UHGV virus genome: UHGV-1341054
DNA: 25,777 bases
Strand: one strand, 5' to 3'
From: a virus
The notes under the pieces were generated by a model. It saw nothing but the letters and a program-made list of their open reading frames with translations, made no database searches and was not told the origin of the DNA. Shown piece after piece: positions 2,669 through 18,848 of this stretch (position 1 is the first letter of the stretch; each line of letters opens with the position of its first letter). The position numbers were made by a program, and so were the translations under genes.

Positions 2669-2748
2669 TAAGTCCCCCGGGCAGAGAATGACCGAGGGGT
2701 ATATTAATCAGTATGTTAATTGTTTATAGACTGTCTAAAGGTGAGTAA

Positions 2749-2779
2749 TGTTAGAAATTACAGGTTTTATTTCTAACAC
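2749..2779. promoter_or_regulatory. Inverted pair of the recurring motif (TGTTAGAAATT ... ATTTCTAACAC), candidate operator or promoter element
   Basis: TGTTAGAAA at 2749-2757 and TTTCTAACA at 2771-2779 form a perfect 9-bp inverted repeat with a 13-bp spacer, in the 110-bp intergenic region upstream of the 2276..2668 gene. Confidence 0.35.
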
Positions 2780-3174
2780 TACCATCTGCTTAAACGAACA
2801 ATATGTCTTACTTTTGCGGACCACTTCCCTTTGGTTTTGTTGACTACCGCCTGCGCCAGCCTTAACTCGCTTTCATAATCAGCCTTGCGCCCATCGTTTT
2901 CCGACAGCAAATAGCCTTCAACTTGTGGTACGGTCAGATAGTCCTGATCAACATTAAGTGGTCCTGTGGGTGCTCTGAACGGCGTTAGTTGCTTTGCGTT
3001 CCAGTTAAATCGAATACGTACGTCACGAACGGCAAGGGTTGCATACCCATGCACGGTACTTTCGTAACCTAGTTTTGTTTCACCTGCATGACATGACGTG
3101 ATTTTGCAGTCAAGCAACGTCCAGTCCATTTCCTTAGCTTGTTCAACTGTTAGCTTCTGCTCTTCGTACATCAA
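2779..3174 (-). CDS. Hypothetical protein, about 130 aa
   Basis: ORF-track TTG start at 3174; a more likely ATG at 3171..3169 overlaps the stop of the upstream gene (translational coupling). Confidence 0.55.
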   Translation of the reverse strand: MMYEEQKLTVEQAKEMDWTLLDCKITSCHAGETKLGYESTVHGYATLAVRDVRIRFNWNAKQLTPFRAPTGPLNVDQDYLTVPQVEGYLLSENDGRKADYESELRLAQAVVNKTKGKWSAKVRHIVRLSRW

Positions 3175-3746
3175 AATGCCTCCCAGTCAGTTGCCATAAT
3201 GTCTACGCTGCTGGCAAACCAGTCAGAACGTGCTTGCAAAGCACCATCCATCATTACCAGACGTGGAAGAATGGAGACTTTGACGCCCTTTTGCACGTTG
3301 AATATTCCTTCCGGAAGAAAGCTAACCATCTTGTCCTTACTTTCAATGCAGCCGGGTTCGAGTGATATGTACTGTCCTTTAGGCCAGGATTTTCGGCGTG
3401 CGTCTAATCCGTTCATTAACCAGTGGATTGCGACAGAAAAAGGAATGTTTGCTTTGGCAATGGAAAGTCCACCAGCGACAGCCTGTTTATGAAACTTGAG
3501 GAGTTTTACAGCGGCCTCGGCAAGCGCAACATAAGGTTCGGGATGGACTTCGGTAAGGCTGCATCCACGAACTGTTACTGTCACAGCATGGGAATCGCCT
3601 TTTGACGCCGTTTCGATGTTGACCCCTTTGTTTGACAGTGCGTGATACAAAGCGTCACCCATGCATGACCAGCGTTCATTGCGTCCAATGAACTCACTCA
3701 AGATGCGGTCCTGCTCTGTATACGTTGCATTAGCCAAAACAGTCAT
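3171..3746 (-). CDS. Hypothetical protein, 191 aa
   Basis: ATG at 3746 preceded by a strong SD (AGGAGAGG, 4 nt spacer); contiguous with and coupled to the downstream gene. Confidence 0.65.
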   Translation of the reverse strand: MTVLANATYTEQDRILSEFIGRNERWSCMGDALYHALSNKGVNIETASKGDSHAVTVTVRGCSLTEVHPEPYVALAEAAVKLLKFHKQAVAGGLSIAKANIPFSVAIHWLMNGLDARRKSWPKGQYISLEPGCIESKDKMVSFLPEGIFNVQKGVKVSILPRLVMMDGALQARSDWFASSVDIMATDWEAF

Positions 3747-3984
3747 AACCTCTCCTTTCCTACAGACGTAACTATTCCCCGGATACCCGGTAGTGTGTGT
3801 CTTGTTTCGTATTAGTATGAGATACAGCCTTAGCGACTATATGATGGGTTGAGATAGGGTTGTGGCGGTGGTGCCTCCACCTGCCAGGACAGCCACCCCT
3901 GGCGACGACACTTACCAGAACGATTTTGTTTATACAAAAAAGTTGAAGAAAATGGCTTCGTCACGTGCGCATAGCCGCAATTAC

Positions 3985-4095
3985 CACAACGGTAAGGATG
4001 TTCATTGCATCGACCGTCAAGGGCTGCTTTTCGATGATGACTCTACTTCGCAAGCGATAATGACGCGCTAATCAAACACCCTTACCTGTTATGTG
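3985..4095. repeat. Conserved-arm hairpin E1 (CACAACGGTAAGG ... CCTTACCTGTTATGTG)
   Basis: Left arm 3985-3997, right arm 4079-4095. Arms are reverse complements apart from one extra T in the right arm; about 81-nt loop. Confidence 0.4.
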
Positions 4096-4275
4096 CCGTG
4101 CTCTTCCGGCTGTCACACCGAATCGCCAGGATGGTGAGTCCTCGGTCCGACGATATGAACGGGGCTTGCACATTCCGGCTACCTGATGTGCCCATACAGT
4201 GTTAGTAAAAGGTACCTAACAGCTACACCAGACCGCTATCGACGCATGTGCCATACGCCGTGTTACAACCAAATA

Positions 4276-4351
4276 TGGTGGCCCCTACCGGACTTGAACC
4301 GATGACCGTGCGATTATGAGTCGCCAGCTCTAACCACTGAGCTAAGGGGCC
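4276..4351 (-). tRNA. tRNA with anticodon CAU, most like tRNA-Ile2 (lysidine type); Met not excluded
   Basis: Minus-strand 76 nt GGCCCCTTAGCTCAGTGGTTAGAGCTGGCGACTCATAATCGCACGGTCATCGGTTCAAGTCCGGTAGGGGCCACCA. 7-bp acceptor stem, D and T arms, anticodon loop CTCATAA, encoded CCA. Closely resembles E. coli ileX as recalled from memory. Confidence 0.85.
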
Positions 4352-4357
4352 GGATTA

Positions 4358-4462
4358 CTATTTACTAAGTGCTTCAATGGCGCTAACAATGCCGCCTACA
4401 ACTATGGCAACAATAATAATGAGAACAATTGGATACTTGTCAGCAAAATCCCAGAATCCCAT
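4358..4462 (-). CDS. Small hydrophobic peptide, 34 aa (MGFWDFADKYPIVLIIIVAIVVGGIVSAIEALSK)
   Basis: ATG at 4462..4460 preceded by SD GAAGGA (6 nt spacer). One predicted TM helix. Stop TAG at 4358-4360 lies 6 nt before the tRNA-Ile 5' end. Start overlaps the stop of the upstream small ORF (TGATG). Not in the ORF track (under 60 aa). Confidence 0.4.
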   Translation of the reverse strand: MGFWDFADKYPIVLIIIVAIVVGGIVSAIEALSK

Positions 4463-4665
4463 CACTGATCCTTCGAAGCTATTTTAAATATCGGCCATAC
4501 CAATGTTACGGCTACTGCCACCAACGCCCCGTCCGATAAAACCGACAGGATTGTGCTGGTGAAATCCACCAGCACGGACAGCTTGAGCACCATGCTCCCT
4601 ACTCTCCAATTGTTGTGGTTACCGGTACTGATCTCCGGCTTAGCGACCCCGGCTACTGACTGCAT
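4462..4665 (-). CDS. Small membrane protein, 67 aa from ATG 4665, or 43 aa from internal ATG 4593
   Basis: Hydrophobic C-terminal half (ALVAVAVTLVWPIF). Internal ATG at 4593 has SD GGAGAG; the 4665 start has a weak RBS. Coupled to the downstream 34-aa ORF. Confidence 0.3.
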   Translation of the reverse strand: MQSVAGVAKPEISTGNHNNWRVGSMVLKLSVLVDFTSTILSVLSDGALVAVAVTLVWPIFKIASKDQ

Positions 4666-4733
4666 TGCAGTGTGTGAACTCGCCTCGTGTGTCGCTGGGG
4701 CATTTCTTTCCGCGCATCAGTCTGCGCATCAAC

Positions 4734-4809
4734 CACAACGGAAAGAGCATTGGCTAACCAGGCTCGCCGACTCTTCACGATTATCGGCTCAATGCTCTTA
4801 CCTGTTGTG
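4734..4809. repeat. Conserved-arm hairpin E2 (CACAACGGAAAGAGCATTG ... CAATGCTCTTACCTGTTGTG)
   Basis: Left arm 4734-4752, right arm 4790-4809, about 19 bp with mismatches and one extra T in the right arm. The 37-nt loop holds an inner hairpin GCCGA...TCGGC. Confidence 0.4.
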
Positions 4810-4987
4810 CGCTCCGTTTCGTGGAGCTAACGGCGGGTGATCGGGCCGCACCAGACTGGACTTATTTCAGCGTTATGCTCATGCCAGAGAATCAAACTGT
4901 GATGGTCGGTGCTGAACTCCGACACAGGGTTGTAGCAAGCCCCGCAAAGCGCGCACTACTGTAGTTGCGGCACATCAGCCTGTGCAT

Positions 4988-5088
4988 TCACCACAATGTT
5001 GAGAACACTGGTTGTCACGCTGCAACGCAACATTTATTCGTAAATTGGGATATGACCCCGTTACGACAGTGTTCTCAACGTTGTAGTG
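4988..5088. repeat. Long hairpin E3, 14-bp perfect core stem with CACAA/TTGTG-type base
   Basis: TGTTGAGAACACTG (4997-5010) pairs with CAGTGTTCTCAACG (5067-5080); the flanking CACCACAA and TTGTAGTG extend the stem imperfectly; 56-nt loop. Confidence 0.35.
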
Positions 5089-5224
5089 CCGGTTACGGTT
5101 CCGGCCAGGTCTCTTCCTCAACGGGGTGTTCTCCATACGGGCTACCGTTTATTGGTCGTTCCTGCGGTTTATGTTGTGAAGCCAGATGCTTATCTTCTGG
5201 TTGCTTCTAAGAGCTGCACTTCAT

Positions 5225-5311
5225 CACAACGGTAAGGGTACTTCGTAGGGATTCGAACCCTCTGCCAAGCACGGCGATCTCCGACGTCGCAAAATACCCT
5301 TACCTGTTGTG
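5225..5311 (-). ncRNA. tRNA-like fragment (T-arm mimic) enclosed by conserved-arm hairpin E4, directly 3' of tRNA-Thr
   Basis: Arms CACAACGGTAAGGGTA (5225-5240) and TACCCTTACCTGTTGTG (5295-5311). Interior contains GGGTTCGAATCCC (T-stem-loop with TTCGAAT) but no matching D or anticodon arms and no CCA. Right arm ends 1 nt from the tRNA-Thr 3' end. Confidence 0.35.
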
Positions 5312-5312
5312 T

Positions 5313-5388
5313 TGGGGCCGATTAACGGACTCGAACCGCTGACATCCTGCTTACAAGGCAGGCGCTCTACCAACTGAGCTAAATCGGC
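5313..5388 (-). tRNA. tRNA-Thr (anticodon UGU)
   Basis: Minus-strand 76 nt GCCGATTTAGCTCAGTTGGTAGAGCGCCTGCCTTGTAAGCAGGATGTCAGCGGTTCGAGTCCGTTAATCGGCCCCA. Canonical cloverleaf, anticodon loop CTTGTAA, encoded CCA. Confidence 0.9.
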
Positions 5389-5390
5389 AC

Positions 5391-5465
5391 TGGCGATGGT
5401 GAGTGGATTCGAACCACCGACCAGTTGGTTAACAGCCAACTGCTCTACCGCTGAGCTACACCATC
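5391..5465 (-). tRNA. tRNA-Asn (anticodon GUU)
   Basis: Minus-strand 75 nt GATGGTGTAGCTCAGCGGTAGAGCAGTTGGCTGTTAACCAACTGGTCGGTGGTTCGAATCCACTCACCATCGCCA. Canonical cloverleaf, anticodon loop CTGTTAA, encoded CCA. Lies 2 nt upstream of tRNA-Thr. Confidence 0.9.
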
Positions 5466-5662
5466 AATTACCGGGTACGTCTCCGGCAAGGGCTTCCACC
5501 TTCGTATGCTTTTCGGCGCACCGCGCCCTGGCTGCAATTCGGTAACAGGGAGTGCATGACCCTGGCTTCCGGCGTAGTTAGCGCCTTCCGCATGACGGGA
5601 TATACCCGCTTAGGTTTGGAACTGTCCAAATGCTGTTAAGCACCGGCTGCTGCGCGAGTTGC

Positions 5663-5745
5663 CACAACAGATAAGGACGCTGCCAAGAAAGACCTGACCC
5701 TTCTCATTCATCTGGTTAATCACACCAGCGCCCTTACCTGTTATG
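5663..5745. repeat. Conserved-arm hairpin E5 (CACAACAGATAAGGACGC ... GCGCCCTTACCTGTTATG)
   Basis: Left arm 5663-5680, right arm 5728-5745, 15 of 18 complementary; lies upstream (in minus sense) of the tRNA-Asn/Thr pair. Confidence 0.4.
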
Positions 5746-5926
5746 ACTCCCCGTTCTTTAATACACAGACGGGAAAACTCTGCGGTCGATTTCTTGACGG
5801 GGGGCGACTCATACCCCGTGGCGTCAGGCTTCTTAGGCCGCTACCATCATCAGATCATCGTTTGCATTTACTTTAATGGTCGGTTTCTAAACCGCCGCAA
5901 AGTCGCTAACCATGACGAAAACACTG

Positions 5927-5951
5927 AAAAAAAGCCCACCCGGAGATGGGC
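5927..5951 (-). terminator. Candidate rho-independent terminator (minus strand)
   Basis: In minus sense: GCCCA-TCTCCGGG-TGGGC followed by TTTTTTT (A-run 5927-5933 on the plus strand). Confidence 0.45.
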
Positions 5952-5970
5952 AAATACGCTACATCTCACA

Positions 5971-6049
5971 CAAGAAAGAAGCCGACTGCCTGAGCTGGAT
6001 CCACTTTCAAATGCCCGCAGAAAGGGATCACAAGTCGGCTTCTTTCTTG
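5971..6049 (-). ncRNA. Large hairpin (17-bp perfect stem plus inner inverted repeat), candidate structured sRNA ending at the 5927-5951 terminator
   Basis: CAAGAAAGAAGCCGACT (5971-5987) pairs perfectly with AGTCGGCTTCTTTCTTG (6033-6049). Inner arms GATCCACTTTC and GAAAGGGATC. The overlapping ORFs on both strands look spurious. Confidence 0.3.
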
Positions 6050-6265
6050 ATGCGGCACTCTCTCCGCCCGTCACCGCTCTGTCTCGGTTGTCGCGTTTGC
6101 CACGCCAGCCGTAACGAGGTTTAAAGTCTTTGCACGTTTCCATCACTCGACTGCCGTCTGTGGCTGTTCGTTGCGGCGGGGGTGCCTCCCCCTGGGGATA
6201 TCCCCGGCCTTACCCCATTCTTTCAAGACACAATGCAAGGCCACATCCGCATAGGTGCATTACCG

Positions 6266-6331
6266 CAACATTAAGGAGACTCAGGGCAAAAGATACTCGC
6301 CACAAAAAATCCCTATGCCTCCTTAATGTTG
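6266..6331. repeat. Hairpin with 13-bp perfect stem (CAACATTAAGGAG ... CTCCTTAATGTTG)
   Basis: Perfect reverse-complement arms at 6266-6278 and 6319-6331 with a 40-nt loop; no adjacent T-run. Confidence 0.35.
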
Positions 6332-6552
6332 AGGATGTGCATTGATGATGACCCGAAGCAGCCTGGCCCACTAAGCACGTTTCTCTGCCAGATCATCATC
6401 ACTGCACGCCCTGAATGCATTGCCATCCGTGGCGTTGAGGTCGCTTGTTGTTTACTCCGCAAAATGCACTTTTGGAGAACACTTTATGGAGCATCATCAG
6501 TTCCTGCTGACCTGTTCTTGCCATTTGCACGGGCGCCTGGCTTACGCATTAT

Positions 6553-6579
6553 ATTTCTAACATTTTCATTTGTTAGAAG
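6553..6579. promoter_or_regulatory. Inverted pair of the recurring motif (ATTTCTAACA ... TGTTAGAAG)
   Basis: TTCTAACA and TGTTAGAA form an 8-bp inverted repeat with an 8-bp spacer. In minus sense the sequence reads ATGTTAGAAATATAATG, which contains a TATAAT -10-like hexamer. Confidence 0.35.
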
Positions 6580-6714
6580 TGCTGGTGGGTTAAGATTTGG
6601 CGAAAAAGAGTGACGCTCTACCTGCTGCAAGCCGTGTTGAGATATCACCCCACCAGCACGAAAAATTTTAGGACAACCACACAAAACAATCAATGTGTTA
6701 TTTTGTTCAACTCA

Positions 6715-6726
6715 AATTTCTAACAC
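6715..6726. promoter_or_regulatory. Recurring motif copy AATTTCTAACAC
   Basis: Exact copy of the 12-mer also found at 9140-9151; lies just downstream of the 6743 gene stop at the head of the noncoding region. Confidence 0.3.
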
Positions 6727-6742
6727 ATTAATTTAATGCCAA

Positions 6743-8063
6743 TCATCTCCCGTACAAATCTTCAACACCGCCGTTCTTTTTATCCCACTCATTCGCCCAT
6801 ACCCGACAGGAATCAATGATTTCCTGTCGGCAGTCGCCCTGCATGAATGGCAACTCGTCATGAAAGTTGCTTGGGATGCAGGCCACACTGAAAACAGTAT
6901 CAAATCCGGCGTCCTTGATGCCTTCCATCGTCTCAGGGCGCATTTTTAACTCGTCAACCGGGGCATCTTTGGCATCCATAATGCGTCGATGCAAGCGAGG
7001 ATAATCCTCTTCAAGGTACGCCATAATCTTATTGTGAAGGCATTCGTCGATGTCGTTGTTCCAGTCTTTGGCAAACTCAGGCATTCGGTAATAAAGTGGC
7101 GTTCCCCAAACTGACGGGATCACATCCATTGTCAGCAAACGGTTTGTTCTAATTTGCAGGTGATAGTTAGCAGTAAGTAATGATTCTCCCCGCTGTCCGG
7201 TTTCCATCTCAAGAAAGTCGTTTTTTTCCGCATGAATAAAATCTGNNNNNNNNNNGGCCATGTGGGTATTCGTGAATATAAGCAACCGCATCCCTGCCAT
7301 CGTACATGAGCGGGAAAGATTCCGGGCGTTCTGGCATACCGCAGGCGCGATTCAGATCATACCCAAGCTGAGAACATTCACTCTTTAACTTCTCGATGAT
7401 AGCCTGAGCAGAAGCAAGTTTCTTACGCAGGCTTACGTTCTCGCCCTGGTATTTAATGCTCACTTTGTTCAGTTCGGATACACGCTCTTTAAGTTCGCGG
7501 CGTTCTCTTTTAAGGGAACGGTTATCTCTCTCGCTGTCATCCAGGCGTTTTGCCAGGCTGGACGGGAAGTCTTTCTTATAGCGCCGTAAATCTGACTCTG
7601 CCGCTGCGCGTAGCGTGTTGGCCTGCTGGAGACTGGCTTCAAGTGTACCGATCTCTCTTTTATGCTGTTCTGCATACTCAGTAATGATTTCACCCAGCGT
7701 CTCCGCCGTGGCGCTCATACCGGTAGCATGGGAAAAACTGATCAGGCTGGCGTTAACGACACGCTGAAATTCTTCGAACTGATCAACCAGGGCGTTGTAG
7801 TCTGATGCACCCGCATCCAGTAGCTGATTGATGTCATTTACAAGGTTATCTGCTGTGGCAAGAGTGCTTTCAAAAAGGCGTTTTGACAGGTCATCTCCGG
7901 CAGTCCGCTTTTGTAACAACTGTATCTGGCTGCGGAGTGTATCGATATCCGCAGAAATGATGTCTTCNNNNNNNNNNATCAAGGACAAGGCAGAGTCAAT
8001 GGGTTGGAAAGAAGGTCAGAAATGATGTCTTCGGTGGAGGAGGTTACTGCTTGCTGACTCATG
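6743..8063 (-). CDS. Hypothetical protein, about 440 aa, N-terminal coiled-coil region; reading frame broken by two 10-N gaps
   Basis: ORF-track pieces 7209..7988 and 6743..7300 are protein-like only on opposite sides of the N run at 7246-7255, consistent with one gene and an arbitrary gap length. The likely true start is ATG at 8063 (SD AAGGA): MSQQAVTSSTEDIIS, whose EDIIS is encoded by a 16-mer duplicated either side of the N run at 7968-7977. Confidence 0.5.
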
Positions 8064-8089
8064 GAGGTTCCTTTTGAAACTTGAATTTA

Positions 8090-8101
8090 ATTTTCTAACA
8101 T
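8090..8101. promoter_or_regulatory. Recurring motif copy (ATTTTCTAACAT) about 30 nt upstream of the 8063 start
   Basis: Minus sense reads ATGTTAGAAAAT, between the upstream terminator (8143-8164) and the ATG at 8063; a TGnTAnAAA extended -10-like arrangement is possible. Confidence 0.35.
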
Positions 8102-8142
8102 ATTTTATTAGTAATTAAGTTTCTTTGGAATACCCATAAGTC

Positions 8143-8164
8143 AAAAAACCCGCCATTGGGCGGG
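8143..8164 (-). terminator. Rho-independent terminator (minus strand)
   Basis: In minus sense: CCCGCC-CAAT-GGCGGG followed by TTTTTT; 14 nt downstream of the stop of the 8178..8498 gene. Confidence 0.55.
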
Positions 8165-8177
8165 TATCAGAGGTTAA

Positions 8178-8498
8178 TCAAGGATGTATTACGGACCATA
8201 ACCAGATTGAGGCAAGGGCTAAAAGCAAGATAAGGATTGCAGCCAGCAACCATTTCATTCGCAAGAAACCTGGCTGATTAACGCCATTGGCGTATTCTGG
8301 ATCGGACATCTTTCCCATCCAGCACGCAGAAAGCAGCGTGGCATTTTCATTCATATCAAGTTCGTTCAGGGCTTCCCTGATGAGCGGGGCAGTAACCGCT
8401 TTGCGGGCGCTCTTCATAACGATGCTTCGCGTTCTGCCTGCGTCATCTGCGAATGCCAGACTGACGTAGTGACTTCTCAGCAAGGCGCGCACTCCCAA
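8178..8498 (-). CDS. Small tail-anchored membrane protein, 106 aa (C-terminal TM helix WLLAAILILLLALASIWLW)
   Basis: ORF with a single hydrophobic helix at the extreme C-terminus, followed by a terminator; function not assignable from sequence. Confidence 0.5.
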   Translation of the reverse strand: MGVRALLRSHYVSLAFADDAGRTRSIVMKSARKAVTAPLIREALNELDMNENATLLSACWMGKMSDPEYANGVNQPGFLRMKWLLAAILILLLALASIWLWSVIHP

Positions 8499-8680
8499 TC
8501 ATCAGCTAAAGAACTGTCCGGCGTGATATGGACTTTTTCGCCAGTAAAAAGGTTTGTGTAATCCACGTTCCCATTCACTTGCTTTTCAATTCCGATGCAC
8601 ATGGAAGGACTCCAACCACTGCGACGGGCAACAACACAAACTCCAGCGGGAACAAGTTCAGCCACGGTACTTAAATGCAA
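8477..8680 (-). CDS. Possible small protein, 67 aa, TTG start
   Basis: TTG start with GGAG about 10 nt upstream, 13 nt after the VRR-NUC stop; overlaps the next gene by 22 nt. Weak support. Confidence 0.25.
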   Translation of the reverse strand: MHLSTVAELVPAGVCVVARRSGWSPSMCIGIEKQVNGNVDYTNLFTGEKVHITPDSSLADDWECAPC

Positions 8681-8693
8681 AACATTTTCTCCG

Positions 8694-9167
8694 TTAAGTT
8701 AGATCAACATATTCCGTGATAGCTTTGATGGCTTCATCGGCACTTCGCGCCTCAAAGCAGTAGTAACCTGCTTCTGTGAGGCGTGTCATCCAGACGATTT
8801 GTTCGGGAGTTAGACGATTATTCCCTTGCTTCATCTCGATGCGCATTCCGTGATAACCGCCACGCGCAAGATCAATCGAAAGGTCTGGATAACCTTTCTT
8901 TTGCCCCTCAGCGACCATTTTGATAGCTGTCCTTATTCCACGAAGTCCTCCGTTCGGGGTGGCGTGTGTATGTTCGTACACATATCGCATGTGGCGATAG
9001 AGCCAATCCAGAACGCGAACCTGCTCGTAGTGTTCATGGTTCCCTTTGATTAGTTCGGGGTTATTTGCAAGCTCTAGAAGAGCGGCTGCGTGCAGGGTTT
9101 TTGCTTCAAATCCGTAATGGCGTCTTTTTGTTCGATTGTAATTTCTAACACATGTTATAGCTTTCAT
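8694..9167 (-). CDS. VRR-NUC domain nuclease (PD-(D/E)xK superfamily), 157 aa
   Basis: Motifs EHYEQVRVLDWL ... GYPDLSIDLARGGYHGMRIEMKQG ... LTPEQIVWMTRL match the VRR-NUC pattern (E...Q...WL, PDL, hExK). The N-terminal ~44 aa extension and exact start are uncertain; the AATTTCTAACAC motif lies inside codons 5-10. Confidence 0.7.
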   Translation of the reverse strand: MKAITCVRNYNRTKRRHYGFEAKTLHAAALLELANNPELIKGNHEHYEQVRVLDWLYRHMRYVYEHTHATPNGGLRGIRTAIKMVAEGQKKGYPDLSIDLARGGYHGMRIEMKQGNNRLTPEQIVWMTRLTEAGYYCFEARSADEAIKAITEYVDLT

Positions 9168-9326
9168 TAGCTGAAATTAACAACAAAATGATTAAAATGC
9201 CAAAACCATGCTAAATACTACTCAAGGGAGGTAGATATGCAACTGCTCGGACCTGCTTTAAGTTCAATGGATGACATGCATCAAAGAACTGGGTAAATCG
9301 CATTAAATCTACCCAGCATATTATTT

Positions 9327-9593
9327 TCAATAGTTTATCTTATCCTGTTCGGTAATACTGCTAATTGTCTTATCAATGGCTACTTTCCACCCATCAAAGT
9401 TTAAATTATCAATACGCTCGACCAATTTATCCTCAGTATGAGGATAATAAATCCAACTCCATTCATTAGGACTATCAATCTTTATCAGTGTAAAAACACG
9501 CTTATAACGATGAAAGTCAAGTTCGTATCCCTTTGACAATGCGTAATCTTTTAGATCATCAATCGTGAAAAGCCGATTCTTTCGCATAATCAC
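9327..9593 (-). CDS. Hypothetical protein, 88 aa, in a visibly AT-rich segment (moron-like)
   Basis: ORF coupled to the upstream gene (ATGA overlap at 9590-9593); base composition looks more AT-rich than neighbours by eye. Confidence 0.5.
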   Translation of the reverse strand: MIMRKNRLFTIDDLKDYALSKGYELDFHRYKRVFTLIKIDSPNEWSWIYYPHTEDKLVERIDNLNFDGWKVAIDKTISSITEQDKINY

Positions 9594-10024: not shown

Positions 10025-10060
10025 TTTAATTCGGCCTCTTTCGAGGCCGCTCCATATCTG

Positions 10061-13000
10061 TTAAGCCGCCGCTTCAATGATTTTACGCACTTCATCAATT
10101 GAATAGCGCGTCGATACCATCCAGGCCGGACGGTCAAAGTCCACATCGGCAACCGGGTTAACTTCGAAGTTCCAGAAACGCCCACCGATTTTCTTGATGG
10201 CATCTTTTGCGTTGCGAATAGATGAAGATCCGGGCATATCTGCAATGAGATAAACAGCACCAGCGTCTTCACTTACGCTCCACCAGCGACCGCGTACACG
10301 TGCTTTGGCGCGAATAGGCTTATCGTTTACCACGATAATGTAATCATCATTCGCTACCTCGTCAGCCTTGATCTCAGCTACATCAGCCTGTTCTTCCCGT
10401 TCAGTCTTAGCCGCCGCAAGACGTTCAGCAATCTCTGACTCCGTAGCGCCACCATTTTTAAGCGACACAAAGTCATCCCACGTTGCAGATTTCAGAGCAT
10501 CAGGCAAATCTTCCACATACCCGCCCGCTTTTAAGGCGTTAGCATGGCGTATAGCCATCCCGACAAGACGATTCAAGCTATATGCATCTGCGAAATCATC
10601 ACGGGTAATGCTTTTATCCTCAAATGCATGAATTAACGCCCCCGCTTTAATCCAGACTGTTGCAGATGTTTCAAGCGGATTATCGGCATTAGAAATGCTT
10701 AGTTGCGCACTGTAAACTGACTGATCTGCCAACGAGGCAAGTGACGCCCAACCATCTGCATCACTTTGCATTTTGTACTGATCAAACAGCGCATCACGCC
10801 ATGCATTTAGCGCCATGCGTGTTTTCTCAATTTTGGTTGTGATTTTGGACGTTCGCAGTTGTTCGAACATCTGCGAAATCTCCGAACCATTGGTGAAGGC
10901 TTTCATGCGCCCCTGGAAATCGCGGAAAGAAAGCACGCCTCGCCAGTACGTTTCCAGGCCTTCTCCATTTGGCTTGCGGAACAAGCTGCGGACATCTTCC
11001 TGAGTCACTTTTTCAAGTGAACGCCCGGAGAGATCGCGCCCTGCCATCCAGCCATCGAACGCCTTGACCACATCATCCATAGTGGCCTGAGCGCCCCATG
11101 CCTCCATACCTTGCTCATAATCGAAGCCAAACAATGCACGGAGAAAACCTTCTGCCTCTGAAATACGAAGTGGGTTATCACCTGTCTGGATTTTCGCGAC
11201 TTCGCGTTTTAATGCTTCGTCGTTTACATCAGGATAAATCCATTGTTCAGGTGCTATCTCGTCACTTCCAGATGCGCTAATTTTTTGACCAATCATCCCG
11301 CCATAGGTAAAGGCCATTTGAATCTGACCATTGGCGTTACGATAAGCCCAATAGTTTACATCCGGTGCTCCTTGCCAACCGCCACGATCTTTCCCGGTTA
11401 CCCGCATAACACCGCTACGAATAGCGTCATAGAATTGATCGCGAGAAAGAGAGGTTGAAAGCTGGTGGCTTTGAACACCACGTGCCGCTATTTCTCGTGA
11501 TTCAGCCACCCCCTCTTCAAATGTTACCGCTTCAACCACTGAGTCAAACGGTAATGTCATGGTTGAGCCAGGAGAACGAGAGTAGCGACTTGCTCTATCC
11601 AGCCAGGCGACGCGGCAGGTGTATTGCGCTTTTTCGCCCTCAATTTGTGTCACGCGCACAACCGCCGTTGTCTCGTGTTCAGCATCAATGACTGCACGGT
11701 AGTAACTACCTTTATGCAACAGGATGTTCTTGCCAGTGCGCATATACTCCTGCGGGTTCTGAATAACATCGATACTGATATCCAGCACACCAGACTTAAT
11801 AGCACGCTCCACATCACCACGAGAGCGTTTCATAACAGTATCCGCGTCCTTCGCCCTGGTGATTGCAAATCGCAATTCACGCACTCTTTTTTTAGCTTTG
11901 CTTAGTGCTGAAAGCGTATATTTCTGTCCGTTTTTGTTGGTGCCGCTCTTAATCAGTCCATCCAGATCACTCTGGTATCGTTGCGCCTGCTCCATCGCGC
12001 TTTTCAGTTCTGCCTCCATCATGCCGATATCCTTCCCGGCAGCATTCGCCGCTTTCAGGTAGTTATCGAGAGCATTATTGGCTTCGCGTTGCGCTTTAAG
12101 TCGCAGGCGTTCCTCACGTTCTTTCGACTGACGAGCCATAATTGCGCGTCGTTCTTCCGGATTTGCCGCCAGCATAATGGCGCGCTCATCAGCGTCATCC
12201 GCATCACCATTGGCGATCTCTGACATATCGGAGGTCATCACCATCTTGATCCAGTCTTTCTTACGTTTAAGCGTATCCAGACGGAAGTCATCGAATGTGC
12301 CTTTGCCACAATAATAGTGAACATTAACCTTCTCTTGCGGAGAACCTACGCGCGCACCGCGCCCATTTCGTTGGTCGATACTGGCTGGAGTCCAGGGTAG
12401 TGTCAGGTGGTGAATATCGGTCGTTCCAATATGCAGGTTGATACCTACTTCGGCTTTCTTGTTACAGATAATGATCCGCGTGCGCCCTTCGTTATAGTCG
12501 GCAGCAATACCTTCCATCCCCTCAAGGCCAGCATCATTTTTAGCAGAGAGATAATCCTCATATTGGGCCAGTTTACTGTAGTAGGTTTCCCATGCGCCTT
12601 CTTTGTATTCACCGTCTTTGTTTGGCGTCGGTTCGGTCGGTTTTTTGACCTTTTTCAGCTTAACACCACCAGCCTGGCTAACAGTCGTAGCATTGATAAT
12701 GCCTATCTCCTGCTCTGACATTTGCAACGCACTGGCAATGATGCGACGTAGTTTCTGGTGCTGGGCTTTCTCGTCGATAAAGATAATTTGCTTACCGTTC
12801 TTAAGCCCTTCACGCAGGTTCTCGATAAGTGCGGCATACTTAGGCGGGATCGGGTGTGACACCTGTTTCATGTCGATGCCTGCATCAGCAATTGCCTTGA
12901 GTATTTCAGCCTCCAGGTCAATGCTGGCACGCAATTCGACATGATTTGGATGCTCACTAAATGTTGTAGCTACAACCTTGCTGGTACGGGTACTGACCAG

Positions 13001-16000
13001 GCCTCCGGTCGCATCCTCCTCTGCTTCTTCTGCATCGTCTGCCGCTTTCCCACCAGCTACTTTTGGTAGGTTATTAGCTATAGACTTCACCTGTTCAGTA
13101 AGCTCTACAGGGAACTGGAATGTGATAGCGCTGGCGTAAAGATCCGGGTCGATAGCGACCTTATCCATGTCGCGAATGATAGAGAAAATGAAATCATCCG
13201 GTTTCCCGCGAGTGATATTGCCTTCATCATCGACAGTGACGTCATCACCACGACTTAACTCCTGCGCGCGTTTACGAAGCTCTTCATAAGCTGCTTGCTG
13301 CTCTGGAGTCATTGGGATCTGCAAGGTGTTTTCGACGATATCCGGGATTTTTACCGTTGCACCAACATCGGAAGCCGTTTTAAGCGTTGTCCAGCGGTGG
13401 AAAATGCCACGCAGACCATCAAGGTTCTGGAAGCCCACCAGCCCCTGTTTCTCTTCCACTTCGCCAGAAATTTTCTGGACCTGAACAGTGGCTGTTTTAC
13501 CGAACACTCGCACAAAGTCGTCAGGGGTAATAATCCCCATGTGCATCCACTCGTGCTGAGGGATCACCGTTGACAGCATGTTGAAGGCGTCAATAGGGCT
13601 ATTAACCAGCGGAGTTGCTGTCAGCATTACGACGCCGCGCCCATTGTGACGTTTCATCATGTACGCAGCTTTTACAGCCATGTCACGGGCCATTTTGGAT
13701 ACCGCCGGATTAGGTAAATATGCCAGTTGCCCCGCTTCACGCCCGGCACCAAAGGAGTTGCGGTAGTTGTGCCCTTCGTCGGCAATTACGCTATCGAAGT
13801 TCATATCCTCAAAGTACGGGATATTCTGCTTCTTCGCTGTACCGGTATTCGCGGCCTGGTCCTTAATCTTGTTCTTCTTCTGCGCATCACGGTGCTTGCC
13901 TGACGCCAGGTCAAGACGCCCCATTTCGGCGGCATTAAAGACAGCCTGCTGTGAGTTTTCTCCGATGGTTTCATCGCGCAACGGGATAGATGCGAACTGC
14001 TCTTTTGTCATGATGACCGTTCGCCAGTTCGACGATGGGATCATGTTCATGCGTTGAGCGATAACGGCACTGGCGGATTCTTTAACAACATTACGGGTGA
14101 TCGGATTGCCGTCGTTATCAAGTCGCGGGGTGCCGTCCTGGTCGAGCACTGGGGCAGTCTGAATATTTCCGTCACCATCGCGCACTTCGTCCAGACCGAT
14201 AAACATCATATTGGCGAAGGCATCTGCACTGTAGAAGCTCTGTGCCTCGTGATACCAGTTCTGGTATACGGCCTTTGGAACAACGATACAGGTACGTTTG
14301 GTTCGCCCGGTTTCAAAGTTATAGGCTTCCAGTGCCAGCGCGGTCGTCGTTTTACCCAAACCAGTTCCGAATCCCATAATCCCGCGCCCATCTTCCGACA
14401 GACGACGAACTTCTTCGTTCTGGTAAGAAAGCGGTATACGTTTCCCGCTGATGCCTTCAAGCCCCAGGGGTGCGTCTGAATGGGTAAATGGAATATAACC
14501 GTTAAAGGCGTCGTTATAATCGCGGGCGATCTGATCTGCCTGCGGGTGAGTTCTTAACCAGTCGTTAAAACTCGTCTCAAGCTGGGCGATTTTGTCCAGG
14601 TACTCGTTAGCGTTCTGTCCGCGCGGTTTAACACCGTTCAGGTAGTTCTCAAGCTGATTCAGGAAGCCATCTTTGTTATTCGCTTTCTTGAACTCGTTCC
14701 CGTTTTTGCCGTTTACGGTTCGTAGCTGGTAGCCAGTAAATACCCCGTCCTTACCTTCGTAATCGTCCGGGGATACCAGAATGCCGTTCTCAACCTTAAG
14801 GTCGGGTTCTGTATACTTAAACTCGTCATAGCCCTGCTCTGCCAGGAACTCTTTTATCAGGCGGCGATCCAACCACCGTGCGTTAAGGTTTACCGTGACT
14901 TTGTTCAGCGGTGTAAACGTGCGTTTCTCTTCGATTTTTGAAAGCTGGCGCTCAAAGTTGGCCTTCCGCTCTCCTGTGGACGCGTCTCGCCAGCCCACCA
15001 GCAGTGCCACTTTTGATTTAATATCACCGCTAGTGGCACGGCCCATCGGTAGCAGGCAACCATATCCATCAATAGCGATATCGTCGAATTTCGCCAGGTA
15101 TTCCAGTGCTTCATCGTCGTCTTCGGGCAGTTCGCCTTTAAACGCCTCGCGGAAGTCATCAAGATTGATAGGATTAAGGGCAACATCGCTGAAAAGGTGT
15201 GTCACAACCTGTTCCGGACGAGTGAAATCAATACCAGCAGCCCCTTTGCTAACATCAAGCCGTCCGGACAGCAGATCGGATGCTTCACCGTCCTGATTGA
15301 CGTTCCCGGTGAATGTCAGCCAGTTCTTCGCGCCCGCTTCGGTAATATCGTTTAGCTTAATAGCGTGTGGTGGGCCATATTTAGCAACTTCGGCAGCCGT
15401 CAGACGTGCGGCATCAGCCAGTTCATCATCGACGTTTTCACCAAGGTTACGCTTATCCAGCGCTTTATTGATAAGTTGTCCGATCAGCGCACCGCGCATA
15501 ATGCGCTCACGGTCTTTTTCGCGTTGTTTCCCAGCAAAGCGAATCATTGCCGCTACTTCATCACTGATAACCGATGGATAGTCGGAAGCGATCGCGGATA
15601 TCTGCCCCCATGACAGAGCCAGAATGCCGTTTGTTGATTGGAACGTTGTTTGCAGATCACCGAATGTCGAAACACCATATCGGCTTACATCAAGTACGGA
15701 GGATTTGGTTGTCGCATCTTTAACCCATTTCAGGCCATCAAACTCGTGCCAGATGCCACCTACAAGGCGCTTATCTCCTACTTTGGCACCCTGCCATGCC
15801 TGAGTAGTTACGCCAAGCAAATCCCAATTAATGCGGCTTTCAAAGCGGCGCGATAGAGCGGTTTTCATCGACTCATTGGATACACGACCGTCCTTTTTCA
15901 CCACCAGGGTGTTGCGGAAGCTGGTGCGTTCCATGTCGCCGTAAACGAATCGCTTCCCTTCGGTTGTAAACCACTTGCCTTTCAGAAAGGTATCCCAAAG

Positions 16001-16903
16001 GACATTTGCCGATTTTAGCGTCGCATCATCCGTATCGGGGATCATCTCCAGGAAGGCTTCCGGGTGTTTACGCAATACCCATACGTCCACAACTGTATCT
16101 GTACCGGATTCGCTGAACGTACCGGAAGGCATACGATGTGCGCCCAGAAATTCCGCTTTACGACTAACCTTGTCACGCAGTTTCTTGTATTTAGTGCCGT
16201 CGGTCATGCCGTTAGGCACCACCAGCACGATCAGTCCGCCAGGTTTAACCTTGTCAATGGTACGAAGCACAAAGTAGTTACCTACGTTCTTTTCGTTCGC
16301 ATAGGCAGGATCTAATCCAGCCACACCGGAACGACCTTCCCCGAACGGCACATTACCCACCGCGTGGTCATACATTGCGTCTTTGGCTGCAAGCGACTCA
16401 AACGCTCCGATATTCACATCATCTTCCGGGTGCAATAACTGGTTAATTCGACCAGAAATCGGAGACAATTCGGCGCTCGTCATTATCATTCCCTGCCGCT
16501 TCGTCTCCTGGAAAATTCCCGTACCCGCTGACGGTTCAAGAACATGACCGCTATCAATGCCGTAATCCGAAAATAAATCCCAGATACCTTCTGCCATAAA
16601 TTGCGGCGTGTAATACTCGTACTGACTTCCTTCGCCATCCGTCAGACCACCTTCCCCGGTGTATCCTGCAAGGATCTGACGCTGTTCGTCTGTCAACTGA
16701 GAGCCATCGAAACCGGGAGGCAAAGCGTTAAGAAGATTGACTGCCGCGTTATTAGCTGCCCGGCGAGTCTTCTGAATGCTGACGCCATCTACCTTCTTAA
16801 CGCCGAAGGCGGCGATTGCACGTGGTTTATGTAACCGACTGATAAGGTCAATCAGTCCACCAATGCTGGTGGCTGCATTGATTGAATTGAGTAATTTGTC
16901 CAA
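10061..16903 (-). CDS. darB: Giant 2280-aa protein: N-terminal N6-adenine methyltransferase domain plus SF2 helicase, DarB-like antirestriction protein
   Basis: Single uninterrupted 6.8-kb ORF. MTase motif I VLEPSAGTGIF and motif IV GNVPFG near the N-terminus; helicase Walker A GFGTGLGKTT, motif II VIADEGHNY, motif III LTATPLVN, motif VI QRNGRGARVG. Size and architecture match P1 DarB (2255 aa) as recalled. Plus-strand ORFs inside are antisense shadows. Confidence 0.8.
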   Translation of the reverse strand: MDKLLNSINAATSIGGLIDLISRLHKPRAIAAFGVKKVDGVSIQKTRRAANNAAVNLLNALPPGFDGSQLTDEQRQILAGYTGEGGLTDGEGSQYEYYTPQFMAEGIWDLFSDYGIDSGHVLEPSAGTGIFQETKRQGMIMTSAELSPISGRINQLLHPEDDVNIGAFESLAAKDAMYDHAVGNVPFGEGRSGVAGLDPAYANEKNVGNYFVLRTIDKVKPGGLIVLVVPNGMTDGTKYKKLRDKVSRKAEFLGAHRMPSGTFSESGTDTVVDVWVLRKHPEAFLEMIPDTDDATLKSANVLWDTFLKGKWFTTEGKRFVYGDMERTSFRNTLVVKKDGRVSNESMKTALSRRFESRINWDLLGVTTQAWQGAKVGDKRLVGGIWHEFDGLKWVKDATTKSSVLDVSRYGVSTFGDLQTTFQSTNGILALSWGQISAIASDYPSVISDEVAAMIRFAGKQREKDRERIMRGALIGQLINKALDKRNLGENVDDELADAARLTAAEVAKYGPPHAIKLNDITEAGAKNWLTFTGNVNQDGEASDLLSGRLDVSKGAAGIDFTRPEQVVTHLFSDVALNPINLDDFREAFKGELPEDDDEALEYLAKFDDIAIDGYGCLLPMGRATSGDIKSKVALLVGWRDASTGERKANFERQLSKIEEKRTFTPLNKVTVNLNARWLDRRLIKEFLAEQGYDEFKYTEPDLKVENGILVSPDDYEGKDGVFTGYQLRTVNGKNGNEFKKANNKDGFLNQLENYLNGVKPRGQNANEYLDKIAQLETSFNDWLRTHPQADQIARDYNDAFNGYIPFTHSDAPLGLEGISGKRIPLSYQNEEVRRLSEDGRGIMGFGTGLGKTTTALALEAYNFETGRTKRTCIVVPKAVYQNWYHEAQSFYSADAFANMMFIGLDEVRDGDGNIQTAPVLDQDGTPRLDNDGNPITRNVVKESASAVIAQRMNMIPSSNWRTVIMTKEQFASIPLRDETIGENSQQAVFNAAEMGRLDLASGKHRDAQKKNKIKDQAANTGTAKKQNIPYFEDMNFDSVIADEGHNYRNSFGAGREAGQLAYLPNPAVSKMARDMAVKAAYMMKRHNGRGVVMLTATPLVNSPIDAFNMLSTVIPQHEWMHMGIITPDDFVRVFGKTATVQVQKISGEVEEKQGLVGFQNLDGLRGIFHRWTTLKTASDVGATVKIPDIVENTLQIPMTPEQQAAYEELRKRAQELSRGDDVTVDDEGNITRGKPDDFIFSIIRDMDKVAIDPDLYASAITFQFPVELTEQVKSIANNLPKVAGGKAADDAEEAEEDATGGLVSTRTSKVVATTFSEHPNHVELRASIDLEAEILKAIADAGIDMKQVSHPIPPKYAALIENLREGLKNGKQIIFIDEKAQHQKLRRIIASALQMSEQEIGIINATTVSQAGGVKLKKVKKPTEPTPNKDGEYKEGAWETYYSKLAQYEDYLSAKNDAGLEGMEGIAADYNEGRTRIIICNKKAEVGINLHIGTTDIHHLTLPWTPASIDQRNGRGARVGSPQEKVNVHYYCGKGTFDDFRLDTLKRKKDWIKMVMTSDMSEIANGDADDADERAIMLAANPEERRAIMARQSKEREERLRLKAQREANNALDNYLKAANAAGKDIGMMEAELKSAMEQAQRYQSDLDGLIKSGTNKNGQKYTLSALSKAKKRVRELRFAITRAKDADTVMKRSRGDVERAIKSGVLDISIDVIQNPQEYMRTGKNILLHKGSYYRAVIDAEHETTAVVRVTQIEGEKAQYTCRVAWLDRASRYSRSPGSTMTLPFDSVVEAVTFEEGVAESREIAARGVQSHQLSTSLSRDQFYDAIRSGVMRVTGKDRGGWQGAPDVNYWAYRNANGQIQMAFTYGGMIGQKISASGSDEIAPEQWIYPDVNDEALKREVAKIQTGDNPLRISEAEGFLRALFGFDYEQGMEAWGAQATMDDVVKAFDGWMAGRDLSGRSLEKVTQEDVRSLFRKPNGEGLETYWRGVLSFRDFQGRMKAFTNGSEISQMFEQLRTSKITTKIEKTRMALNAWRDALFDQYKMQSDADGWASLASLADQSVYSAQLSISNADNPLETSATVWIKAGALIHAFEDKSITRDDFADAYSLNRLVGMAIRHANALKAGGYVEDLPDALKSATWDDFVSLKNGGATESEIAERLAAAKTEREEQADVAEIKADEVANDDYIIVVNDKPIRAKARVRGRWWSVSEDAGAVYLIADMPGSSSIRNAKDAIKKIGGRFWNFEVNPVADVDFDRPAWMVSTRYSIDEVRKIIEAAA

Positions 16904-16977
16904 AGGAGATCCCCTTCAAAGCCGTGAACTCCGCACATTGCGGTACGGCTTGAAAGGGTATGGAGTGTGTTAATTTG

Positions 16978-17057
16978 GGATAACAAAGTTGGCACCCAAA
17001 ACCGCCATTCATTAATGGAGTAGGTTTTAGCGTGCCCGGATAACAAATATGGCTGCC
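16978..17057. promoter_or_regulatory. Divergent control region: two direct repeats GGATAACAAAnnTGGC 60 bp apart flanking a short palindrome
   Basis: GGATAACAAAGTTGGCACCC (16978-16997) and GGATAACAAATATGGCTGCC (17038-17057); between them AAAACC ... CCATTCATTAATGG ... GGTTTT. Lies between the divergent starts at 16903 (minus) and 17114 (plus). Confidence 0.3.
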
Positions 17058-17113
17058 ATGAAAATCACACACTCCCCATAGTTTATGTTCGTTTGTTAAC
17101 CAGAGGAGTAGTT

Positions 17114-17599
17114 ATGGTGAGTACCGATCCTCGTTGGCTGATGGAAGCCCGTAAACATATTGGCCTGACAGAAATCAAAGGGGCTAAACACAATCCTGAA
17201 ATCGTCCAGTTCTGGCGAGACATCAAGCGCGGCGGCATTAAAGATGATGAAACGCCGTGGTGCGCGGCCTTTGTTGGCGCAATGTTAGAGCGTGTTGGTA
17301 TCCGTTCCAGCCGCTTCGAGTCAGCAAAATCCTACCTGACATGGGGTGAGGCGCTCGATACGCCAGCGTATGGATGTATTGCTGTATTTACTCGCGTGGG
17401 CGGCGGGCATGTCGGCTTTGTCGTTGGTCGCCGGGCGAATGGTGATTTGCTCATTCTTGGGGGCAACCAGGGCGATGCCGTGAATATCCGCGCTTTCCCA
17501 ACATCGCGCGTTTCAGGTTATCGCTGGCCTACTGGAGAACCACGGAATACTGCCTTACTTCCTAATGGTGAGGCCGCCACATCCACCAGCGAAGCGTGA
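17114..17599 (+). CDS. TIGR02594-type (NlpC/P60- or CHAP-like) putative peptidoglycan hydrolase, 161 aa
   Basis: Preferred start ATG 17114 with SD GAGGAG (ORF track gives TTG at 17093). Motifs DDETPWCAAFVGAML, GGGHVGFVVG and LGGNQGDAV fit the conserved Cys/His hydrolase pattern of this family. Only clear plus-strand gene in the window. Confidence 0.7.
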   Translation: MVSTDPRWLMEARKHIGLTEIKGAKHNPEIVQFWRDIKRGGIKDDETPWCAAFVGAMLERVGIRSSRFESAKSYLTWGEALDTPAYGCIAVFTRVGGGHVGFVVGRRANGDLLILGGNQGDAVNIRAFPTSRVSGYRWPTGEPRNTALLPNGEAATSTSEA

Positions 17600-17606
17600 C
17601 TCCACA

Positions 17607-17634
17607 CCCCGGTACAGGCCGGGGTTTCTGTATT
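17607..17634 (+). terminator. Rho-independent terminator for the plus-strand hydrolase gene
   Basis: CCCCGG-TACAGG-CCGGGG followed by TTTCTGTATT, 8 nt after the stop; sits between convergent genes. Confidence 0.5.
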
Positions 17635-17656
17635 AAGCTGTCATAATTTACCCACA

Positions 17657-18619
17657 TCATCCTCGGAATCCAGCAGGGATACGCCACTCACGATCATCAA
17701 ACTCAGTTTTGGTGCCTCGTTGTTTCATGAGCTTTAACGCCTCGTCAACGGTCTGGCAGCCCTGATAGGCCGAATAATCCATTGAAAAATCCAGCCCGTT
17801 GGCAGTCTTATTGGCCTTTCCCGCATTCCCTGTCCCGCGAATCCAGGCAATTTTATGAGCTAACTTTTCAGCAGCCCGATGTAGTGACAGACGTTTCGCG
17901 TGGCGGTCGTCAGCCTGACGTTTAGCGGATCGCGCTTTTGCAGCAGCTATGCGGCTGTTTATCTGCTCTTCGCTAACAACATGCGCTTCACTCAGAAAGT
18001 CTGGATTTAACTGAGTGGACACCGCCTGGGAAGCCTTTGGCTGAACCTGGCATGATCTTTCTCTTTTTTTGGTTACGGTTTTATTCTTCTTTTCTATTGG
18101 TTGTTCATCATGAACACGGGGGGAGTTGTTCATTTTGAACAGGGGGGCATTGACCTCAAAAAAAGAACGTACCTTTGAAATCAGTTGCTTAACCAGTTTC
18201 GTGGCATTAACAATTTTGACGCCCTGCTTACGTCCAGTCTCCAAAACGATGGAAATAAACTGGAGGAAATCAGGGGTGAAGCGGTAGACATTACAAACCT
18301 GAGCATTGTTACTGCCAATCTGATGTTGCTTGGTGAGCATTCCACATTTAACAGCCTCAGAAAATGCACGGCGAACGGTGGAGACGCTACGGCCCAGAAT
18401 GGCAGCCATATCAGCATAAGAGCGACGGATTATGTATTCGTCAGTTGACCCTGCCAGGTTGGAAAATTCGGCAATGATCGAACCGTGTGTTGGCGACAGG
18501 AATCCACTGTGCCGGGCAAAGAAACTTAGCTGGTGGCCTTTGATATGCTTATGGTACTCAGCGTTGCCTTTCCGCTCAAAAATGTTGAAAGTGATGGCAT
18601 CTGAATTTAAAATATCCAT
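17657..18619 (-). CDS. HTH-containing protein, possible replication initiator (Rep-like), about 320 aa
   Basis: Preferred start ATG 18619 with SD AAGGA (ORF track start 18652 lacks an RBS). Segment YADMAAILGRSVSTVRRAFSEAVKCGML is a typical winged-HTH; C-terminal region is basic and K/R-rich. Function is inferred. Confidence 0.55.
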   Translation of the reverse strand: MDILNSDAITFNIFERKGNAEYHKHIKGHQLSFFARHSGFLSPTHGSIIAEFSNLAGSTDEYIIRRSYADMAAILGRSVSTVRRAFSEAVKCGMLTKQHQIGSNNAQVCNVYRFTPDFLQFISIVLETGRKQGVKIVNATKLVKQLISKVRSFFEVNAPLFKMNNSPRVHDEQPIEKKNKTVTKKRERSCQVQPKASQAVSTQLNPDFLSEAHVVSEEQINSRIAAAKARSAKRQADDRHAKRLSLHRAAEKLAHKIAWIRGTGNAGKANKTANGLDFSMDYSAYQGCQTVDEALKLMKQRGTKTEFDDREWRIPAGFRG

Positions 18620-18725
18620 CTGTAATCCTTGATATATCAATGCGAGTTCCAAGTTTTGGTATATCAGCGTGGGTGTCTAAGACCTACGCCTCTGATAAAT
18701 CTACTCAAATAGATTTATCGCCCTC

Positions 18726-18749
18726 AAAAGCCGCCCCCCAGCGGCTTTT
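18726..18749. terminator. Bidirectional rho-independent terminator
   Basis: AAAAGCCGC-CCCCCA-GCGGCTTTT, with A/T runs on both sides; downstream of the 18866..19861 gene. Confidence 0.55.
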
Positions 18750-18815
18750 GTTCTTTCTACGCCCATCAAACTGAGCAACGAACGCGATCCTACCCGAAAC
18801 ATTAATCACTAATCA

Positions 18816-18848
18816 ACAGTGTATATTAATACACTGTGTTAGAAATTT
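18816..18848. promoter_or_regulatory. Perfect 22-bp palindrome abutting a copy of the recurring motif (GTGTTAGAAATTT), candidate operator or origin-proximal site
   Basis: ACAGTGTAT-ATTA-ATACACTGT (9-bp arms, 18816-18837), immediately followed by GTGTTAGAAATTT (18836-18848), upstream of the Rep-like gene. Confidence 0.4.

Follow-up and report, generated by a model that had tools for sequence, protein, structure and literature searches.

What reads a short motif that recurs between the minus-strand genes of a phage-plasmid? The window considered here, a stretch of 25,777 nucleotides (nt) of the virus genome UHGV-1341054, carries such a motif, with the core TGTTAGAAAT, at sites scattered between positions 2,749 and 18,848. 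The source of this 25.8-kilobase (kb) window is a D6-like plasmid prophage, a relative of P1: it shares 99.5% identity with 80-kb Shigella dysenteriae plasmids (e.g., NZ_CP026818) over 99% of its length and 82% identity with phage D6 over 78%, and hundreds of plasmid records match it. By analogy with P1, the motif is very probably the operator of the prophage immunity repressor, a distant homologue of P1 C1.

Is the motif more than a chance repeat? On the plus strand the core lies at 2749-2758, at 6570-6579 (as the variant TTGTTAGAAG) and at 18837-18846, and on the minus strand at 2769-2778, 6553-6562, 6716-6725, 8091-8100 (as TGTTAGAAAA) and 9141-9150. An earlier note on this DNA had listed eight copies; all are present, with coordinates shifted by 1 nt at most. 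With one mismatch allowed, the 11-mer matches eight times in the window where 0.64 matches are expected, a count reached in none of 100 shuffles. The exact 8-mer TGTTAGAA is likewise found eight times, against about 0.14 occurrences expected from base composition in the non-coding part, and all eight copies fall within the 15% of the window that is non-coding (binomial p = 2.7e-7), in agreement with the claim that the motif keeps to the gaps between genes. A prior-free ranking of k-mers places it at the top of the non-coding 8-, 9- and 10-mers. Furthermore, a 20-nt weight matrix (21.7 bits) built from the sites of a complete plasmid and of D6 returns seven window sites, which score 19-30 bits and are all non-coding, while shuffled sequence yields on average 1.2 matches of at least 9 bits (50 shuffles). 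A ninth one-mismatch match at 1217-1227, within pacA, is probably due to chance.

Enrichment in intergenic over coding DNA, whose absence the earlier note had named as a refutation, holds genome-wide. The complete plasmid (80,213 base pairs, bp) carries 17 copies of the core where base composition predicts 2.8, and 16 of them lie between annotated genes although 85% of the plasmid is coding (p = 1e-12); the remaining copy sits at the 5' edge of a pmgM-like gene. Of the 12 exact copies in D6, 11 fall between annotated genes and the other lies at the start of pmgM. P1 (94.8 kb) has none.

The repeated unit is longer than its core. When 30 sites are aligned, the asymmetric consensus is a-T-G-TGTTAGAAA-W-Y-TAA-w-t-T, about 20 nt long and reaching some 10 nt past the core. 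Most sites are single, and their direction with respect to the downstream gene varies, toward pmgS, pmgM, the tRNA operon and c1 and away from repL, rdgC, icd and others, which argues against a promoter element and fits the operators of P1. In the complete plasmid three tail-to-tail pairs (at lpa, at ref and between ppp and DUF968) share an identical 20-bp offset, the two halves forming a 30-bp near-palindrome, TGTTAGAAAT-N10-ATTTCTAACA. Two inverted pairs had been described in the window. That at 2749-2778 holds and is the only robust one, because the second member of the other pair (6553-6579, of the opposite, head-to-head arrangement) falls short of 9 bits when scanned with the matrix and is not kept in relatives. 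This weak partner copy, TTGTTAGAAG at 6570..6579 (plus strand), coincides with a -35 hexamer, and relatives have the hexamer (C/T)TAACA at its position without the full core; it is probably not an independent operator. The step from inverted pairs to a dimeric regulator, also taken in the earlier note, is a weak one, since single, asymmetric sites in either orientation prevail, which is also how the monovalent and bivalent operators of P1 are arranged.

Where do the sites stand? Taking the P1 record AF234172 as the source of annotated C1 operators and late promoters, the motif sites map onto the annotated P1 C1 operators almost one for one. Upstream of lpa, the late-promoter activator gene (2276..2668, minus strand; Pfam BPP1_LPA, E = 6e-48) and the presumed target of the 2749-2778 operators, the promoter-proximal half of the pair is an operator candidate at 2746..2765 (core 2749-2758, plus strand, 19.1 bits) and the distal half another at 2762..2781 (core 2769-2778, minus strand, 19.2 bits); the P1 counterpart by position is Olpa (Op94). 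The only promoter predicted for lpa, a candidate sigma-70 site TAGACA-16-CATACT at 2710..2737 (minus strand; 9/12 in a consensus scan), lies just downstream of the pair, and relatives read TTGCCA/TTACCA-16-CATTCT at the same position.

Two sites, A and B, lie between pmgS and the tRNA genes. Operator A (6709..6728, core 6716-6725, minus strand, 25.1 bits) lies 17 nt after the pmgS stop codon and is followed downstream by a promoter-like site, TTGATT-17-TAAAAT (6665..6693, minus strand, 9/12), both hexamers of which are kept in relatives. Operator B (6546..6565, core 6553-6562, minus strand, 22.9 bits) heads the non-coding RNA/tRNA operon. It fills the spacer of CTAACA-17-TATAAT (6548..6576, minus strand), a sigma-70 promoter-like site that is the best promoter match between 2600 and 9400 (10/12), giving the classic geometry of occlusion; tRNA-Asn, tRNA-Thr and tRNA-Met lie downstream on the same strand. 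The 6553-6562 core, upstream of tRNA-Asn and tRNA-Thr and after a DicF-like region common to P1, corresponds to the bivalent P1 operator Obanab (Op72ab), which heads the same RNA genes.

Farther along, the candidate at 8084..8103 (core 8091-8100, minus strand, 29.8 bits) follows the pmgR terminator and precedes pmgS; the block stands after a conserved terminator and just upstream of the ribosome-binding site. The earlier note had placed this copy about 30 nt before a start codon, and the pmgS ATG (8062-8060) is indeed 28 nt away; in P1 the equivalent region holds OpmgRa,b (Op86). The pmgM-like (VRR-NUC) gene has a candidate at its 5' edge (9134..9153, core 9141-9150, minus strand, 23.6 bits), whose core falls in the first codons of the longest pmgM-like open reading frame (ORF), the true start of which is uncertain; O26/Oppp (Op82/83), flanking pmgL-pmgM, are the P1 equivalents. 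The last candidate of the window, at 18834..18853 (core 18837-18846, plus strand, 28.2 bits), lies between pro and repL, upstream of this lytic replication gene, as does OrepL (Op53) in P1. As a separate observation, a conserved palindrome, CAGTGTAT-ATTA-ATACACTG at 18817-18836, directly abuts the repL operator core and is invariant except for its spacer in seven genomes; another protein may bind there, or the palindrome may belong to the repL control or origin region.

The correspondence continues outside the window. Sites of the complete plasmid or D6 lie 19 nt before the c1 start codon (Oc1 in P1), on both sides of ref (Oref), upstream of icd (Oc4) and 17 nt before rdgC/hrdC (Odmt). Sites between ppp and the next gene, and beside cre, correspond more loosely to P1 Oppp and to Oc1e, near ppp and cre.

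How well are these sites kept? The intergenic regions of D6 and of five further D6-like plasmids are 72-75% identical to the window, and within them the core is invariant at pmgS, pmgM and repL and at the two sites between pmgS and the tRNA genes, and at lpa it differs by a single change (TATTAGAAA); the distal half of the lpa pair is degenerate in the D6 group. At pmgS an invariant block, ACTAATAAAATRTGTTAGAAAAYTAA, stands within an otherwise diverged spacer, at pmgM GTGTTAGAAA is invariant in six aligned genomes whose flanks differ, and at repL the block AAATTTCTAACA is conserved in seven genomes. The order of operator A, TTGATT-17-TARAAT, an inverted Chi pair and operator B is likewise kept in seven genomes. 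Conservation reaches further still in four distant loci, whose C1 proteins are 44-52% identical to that of the plasmid. The core TGTTAGAAA is the top exact non-coding 9-mer in three of them and present in the fourth, and each of the four has one copy some 20-30 nt before c1 and another, inverted, about 110 nt upstream. Across 44-100% C1 identity, the core is unchanged.

Which protein would bind these sites? In the complete plasmid c1 adjoins pacB (NZ_CP026818, 46240-47277; L005, 4240-5277), about 0.6 kb past the left end of the window. Its product of 345 amino acids (aa) matches NCBIfam phage_rep_C1 weakly but over its full length (E = 3.3e-7, well short of the equivalog cut-off), is 22% identical to P1 c1 over 238 aa by tblastn (E = 3e-5) and matches no Pfam profile; its 44-52%-identical homologues are assigned to the precomputed Pfam family Phage_P7_repressor_C1. 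Judged by its sequence, the plasmid c1 product is a distant C1 homologue in the syntenic position, and a different operator sequence is unsurprising given that distance. P1 and P7 share their C1/operator specificity despite being heteroimmune, a precedent for an operator conserved across a subfamily.

Several results weigh against a C1-type operator. The P1/P7 consensus ATTGCTCTAATAAATTT, with up to three mismatches, has no match in the window, and the best alignment of the two operator consensus sequences reaches 10/16, which 46% of shuffles equal; the likeness to the P1 operator suggested in the earlier note is thus no better than chance. With the P1 consensus unmatched, the element would act like a C1 operator but belong to a different specificity class. 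As the core stays the same while C1 diverges, co-variation cannot tie the motif to C1 rather than to another conserved factor. Similarity to the P1 co-repressor Lxc was sought in the syntenic frame, an 88-aa ORF at the position of lxc (bof) downstream of ulx (9327-9593, minus strand), and none was found, nor was a Pfam match. At lpa the pair lies upstream of the predicted promoter, at about -46 to -75 as estimated from the consensus match, an odd place for simple occlusion, and this layout makes the mechanism of repression there uncertain. At repL no convincing promoter was found. Finally, the assignment to the repressor draws on position and on analogy with P1. Taken together, position, architecture and conservation support sites for a repressor of the P1 C1 kind, as had been proposed, and the suggested sequence likeness does not.

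Could another regulator read the motif instead, such as a phage factor linked to an anti-repressor or resembling Cro, or a nucleoid protein of the host? A constant core beside a C1 that falls to 44% identity would allow for a more conserved recogniser, the motif is unlike the P1 operator sequence, and binding by C1 is something that we infer. This explanation is nevertheless improbable. The site-by-site match to the P1 C1 regulon, including the autoregulatory sites at c1, would be hard to explain otherwise; the absence of the motif from P1 makes it specific to this phage group and not a host-factor site; and P1 and P7, with their common specificity, provide the precedent for a conserved operator.

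Alternatively, the motif might be an intrinsic element of early sigma-70 promoters, a -35 or extended -10-like sequence that calls for no dedicated protein. Read in one direction it holds CTAACA, a 4/6 match to the -35 hexamer that the best predicted promoter uses, and in the other TGtTAGAAA, which resembles an extended -10. However, copies occur in both orientations relative to downstream genes, some of them only 16-19 nt before start codons, too near for a -35; the conserved block of about 20 nt and 21.7 bits goes well past a hexamer, and inverted pairs of fixed spacing are not a promoter property. A promoter element is therefore very unlikely. Least credible of all is that the motif forms part of phage-specific late promoters used with Lpa, taking in D6 the place of the -22 box of P1. 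In favour of this, it is AT-rich, several minus-strand genes have it upstream, in some cases about 30 nt from the start codon, and it abuts TATAAT at 6553-6562. Against it, the motif points either way with respect to the downstream gene, it precedes lpa and c1, neither of which is a late gene, no copy is found before prt, ddrB, lydA, R/S, sit, gene 7 or pacA, the sole copy by the major capsid gene is closer to a divergent ORF (16 nt) than to the capsid start (133 nt), and the late operons carry a distinct sequence, AAATMACA-N7-TANNNT.

What, then, marks the late operons? The P1 late box, AAGTNACTT-N4-TANNNT with up to two mismatches, is not enriched in the window (six matches against 5.1 expected) and none of its matches falls at a motif site, so that the late-promoter alternative offered in the earlier note fails on this count as well. 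The late motif of the D6 group is AAAT(C/A)ACA with a -10 hexamer resembling TANNNT about 7 nt farther on. A looser search pattern finds three copies in the window against 0.11 expected, before prt (21591-21611, minus strand), before ddrB (23020-23040, minus strand) and before a CHAP-domain gene (17062-17082, plus strand), and each genome has about 11. Nearly every late operon of D6 and of the complete plasmid has the motif in front of it (lydA, R, prt, ddrB, 23, pmgB/sit, 7, upfC and mat), at positions equivalent to P1 LPpro, LPdar, LPs, LPsit, LP23 and LPmat. It differs from the P1 box AAGTNACTT and is probably the Lpa-dependent late promoter of the D6 type.

If the motif is indeed the operator of the C1 homologue, how would the circuit work? 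In the lysogen, the repressor would occupy sites at or beside the promoters of early and lytic-control units and block RNA polymerase. Its targets in the window would be lpa (the late-transcription activator), the non-coding RNA/tRNA operon, pmgS, pmgM and repL, and elsewhere in the genome c1 itself (autoregulation), ref, icd and hrdC/rdgC, among others. The immC system of P1 is the model for the binding scheme, in which each asymmetric site here would take up one molecule of the C1 homologue and each pair two. Once the repressor is inactivated, lpa and repL would be expressed, and Lpa would then activate the late promoters of the AAATMACA type and so switch on the late operons.

An element of this kind is well known and to be expected; its D6-type sequence is without operator or promoter features in the D6 GenBank records. 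The literature searched holds no mention of the motif, its full-text matches being unrelated primers, and an earlier description in print may exist. Whether TGTTAGAAA is the common core of a second C1-type specificity class (the D6 group), retained despite divergence of the repressor to 44%, is evenly balanced. If it is, a single immC-type operator code would run through these Enterobacterales phage-plasmids, their immunity differing only via other modules, as in P1 and P7. The operators and the AAATMACA-N7-TANNNT box would then make up a complete and so far unannotated regulatory map of the group, which would include C1 control of a mostly non-coding-RNA operon (DicF-like RNA, a region with a tmRNA-tag-like frame, tRNAs). 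D6-like phage-plasmids are common in Escherichia coli, Shigella and Salmonella, and their public annotation seldom goes beyond proteins. With the operator and the late box in hand, the repressor regulon, the lysis-lysogeny circuit and likely co-immune elements could be predicted, and reporters or virulent mutants designed. No new principle is involved: the C1/Lpa scheme of P1 would operate in a sister group with different DNA words.

The surroundings of the sites follow the gene order of D6 and P1. On the minus strand the window carries pacB (partial), pacA, lpa, two small ORFs, tRNA-Met, tRNA-Thr, tRNA-Asn, pmgS, pmgR, the pmgM-like gene, ulx, darB, repL, pro, prt, ddrB, ddrA and darA. In the window pmgS is split into two ORFs by two runs of ten Ns (7246-7255 and 7968-7977) with small extra or duplicated flanks; since the 99.5%-identical Shigella plasmid has an unbroken pmgS, the split is an artefact of assembly or scaffolding. 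The D6 records place the tRNA genes on the plus strand (L001, 7145-7850, against 4276-5465 of the window). By ARAGORN and Rfam the homologous tRNA-Thr and tRNA-Asn of the window are on the minus strand, co-directional with the operator-controlled promoter, and the strand annotation in the D6 records may be wrong.

The window holds further repeats and RNA-like elements. The Chi sequence GCTGGTGG is very strongly over-represented: the window has 19 copies where 0.74 would be expected, and 13 of these are on the minus strand (examples among the 19 are 789-796, 6581-6588, 6650-6657 and 16865-16872). At 6577-6661 (minus strand) an inverted Chi pair forms an 11-bp inverted repeat, GTGCTGGTGGG ... 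CCCACCAGCAC, around about 57 nt, between operator A with its promoter on one side and the promoter of operator B on the other, an arrangement kept in seven genomes. As a structured RNA this stretch was rejected: the fold is a good one (z = -4.0), but conservation is limited to the outer 11-bp stem and lacks compensatory changes, and Rfam gives no match. It may be an RNA or a DNA-level site, both being possible.

Between the DicF-like terminator and tRNA-Asn lies about 0.5 kb of non-coding sequence (5466-5960, especially 5833-5940; minus strand), about 90% of whose aligned positions match P1 (at about 68.9-69.35 kb, where nothing is annotated). It contains a tmRNA-tag-like reading frame, GCAAACGATGATCTGATGATGGTAGCGGCCTAA (ANDDLMMVAA-stop), and scores 24 bits with Rfam tmRNA_permuted (E = 0.015), below the gathering score. 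The element is found at 583 E. coli plasmid and 152 chromosomal places, mostly unannotated; one lambdoid prophage carries it flanked by the genes for the Q antiterminator and the holin. The non-coding RNA/tRNA region also has four copies of a 21-nt direct repeat, reading ACAYAACAGGTAAGGGY in the minus sense, at 4074-4094, 4790-4810, 5292-5312 and 5726-5746, with one copy directly after tRNA-Thr. These repeats might be processing signals or remnants of duplicated units.

How does the proposed system compare with those already described? P1 C1 belongs to the same protein family as the 345-aa repressor, at only about 22% identity. The C1 operators of P1 and P7 are, like the sites here, numerous, dispersed and asymmetric, about 17-20 bp long, in either orientation, and single or in inverted pairs, so that the monovalent and bivalent kinds of P1 find their likeness in the single and paired sites of this group. 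The geometry of the pairs differs: bivalent P1 operators have an 11-bp offset and span 28 bp, with 17-bp sites that overlap by 6, whereas the pairs here have a 20-bp offset, span 30 bp and hold their cores 10 bp apart. The gene set is common to both, namely lpa, the ban/tRNA operon, repL, pmgR/S, pmgL/M, ref, c4-icd, hrdC-dmt and c1. Even at lpa there is a parallel, Olpa of P1 abutting the upstream edge of the -35 and the operator pair here likewise lying upstream of the predicted promoter.

The Lpa-dependent late promoters of P1 (the -22 box AAGTNACTT, 4 nt, then a -10 hexamer) are, like the motif, short repeats upstream of phage operons, and an Lpa homologue is encoded in the window; they differ from the motif in sequence, in orientation behaviour and in gene set. 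The lambdoid CI/Cro system offers the more distant comparison. There, as is proposed here, repressor sites overlap early promoters and govern the switch between lysis and lysogeny. Lambdoid operators, however, are symmetric 17-bp sites for dimers, gathered at two control regions, whereas the sites described here are asymmetric and scattered over more than 10 transcription units.

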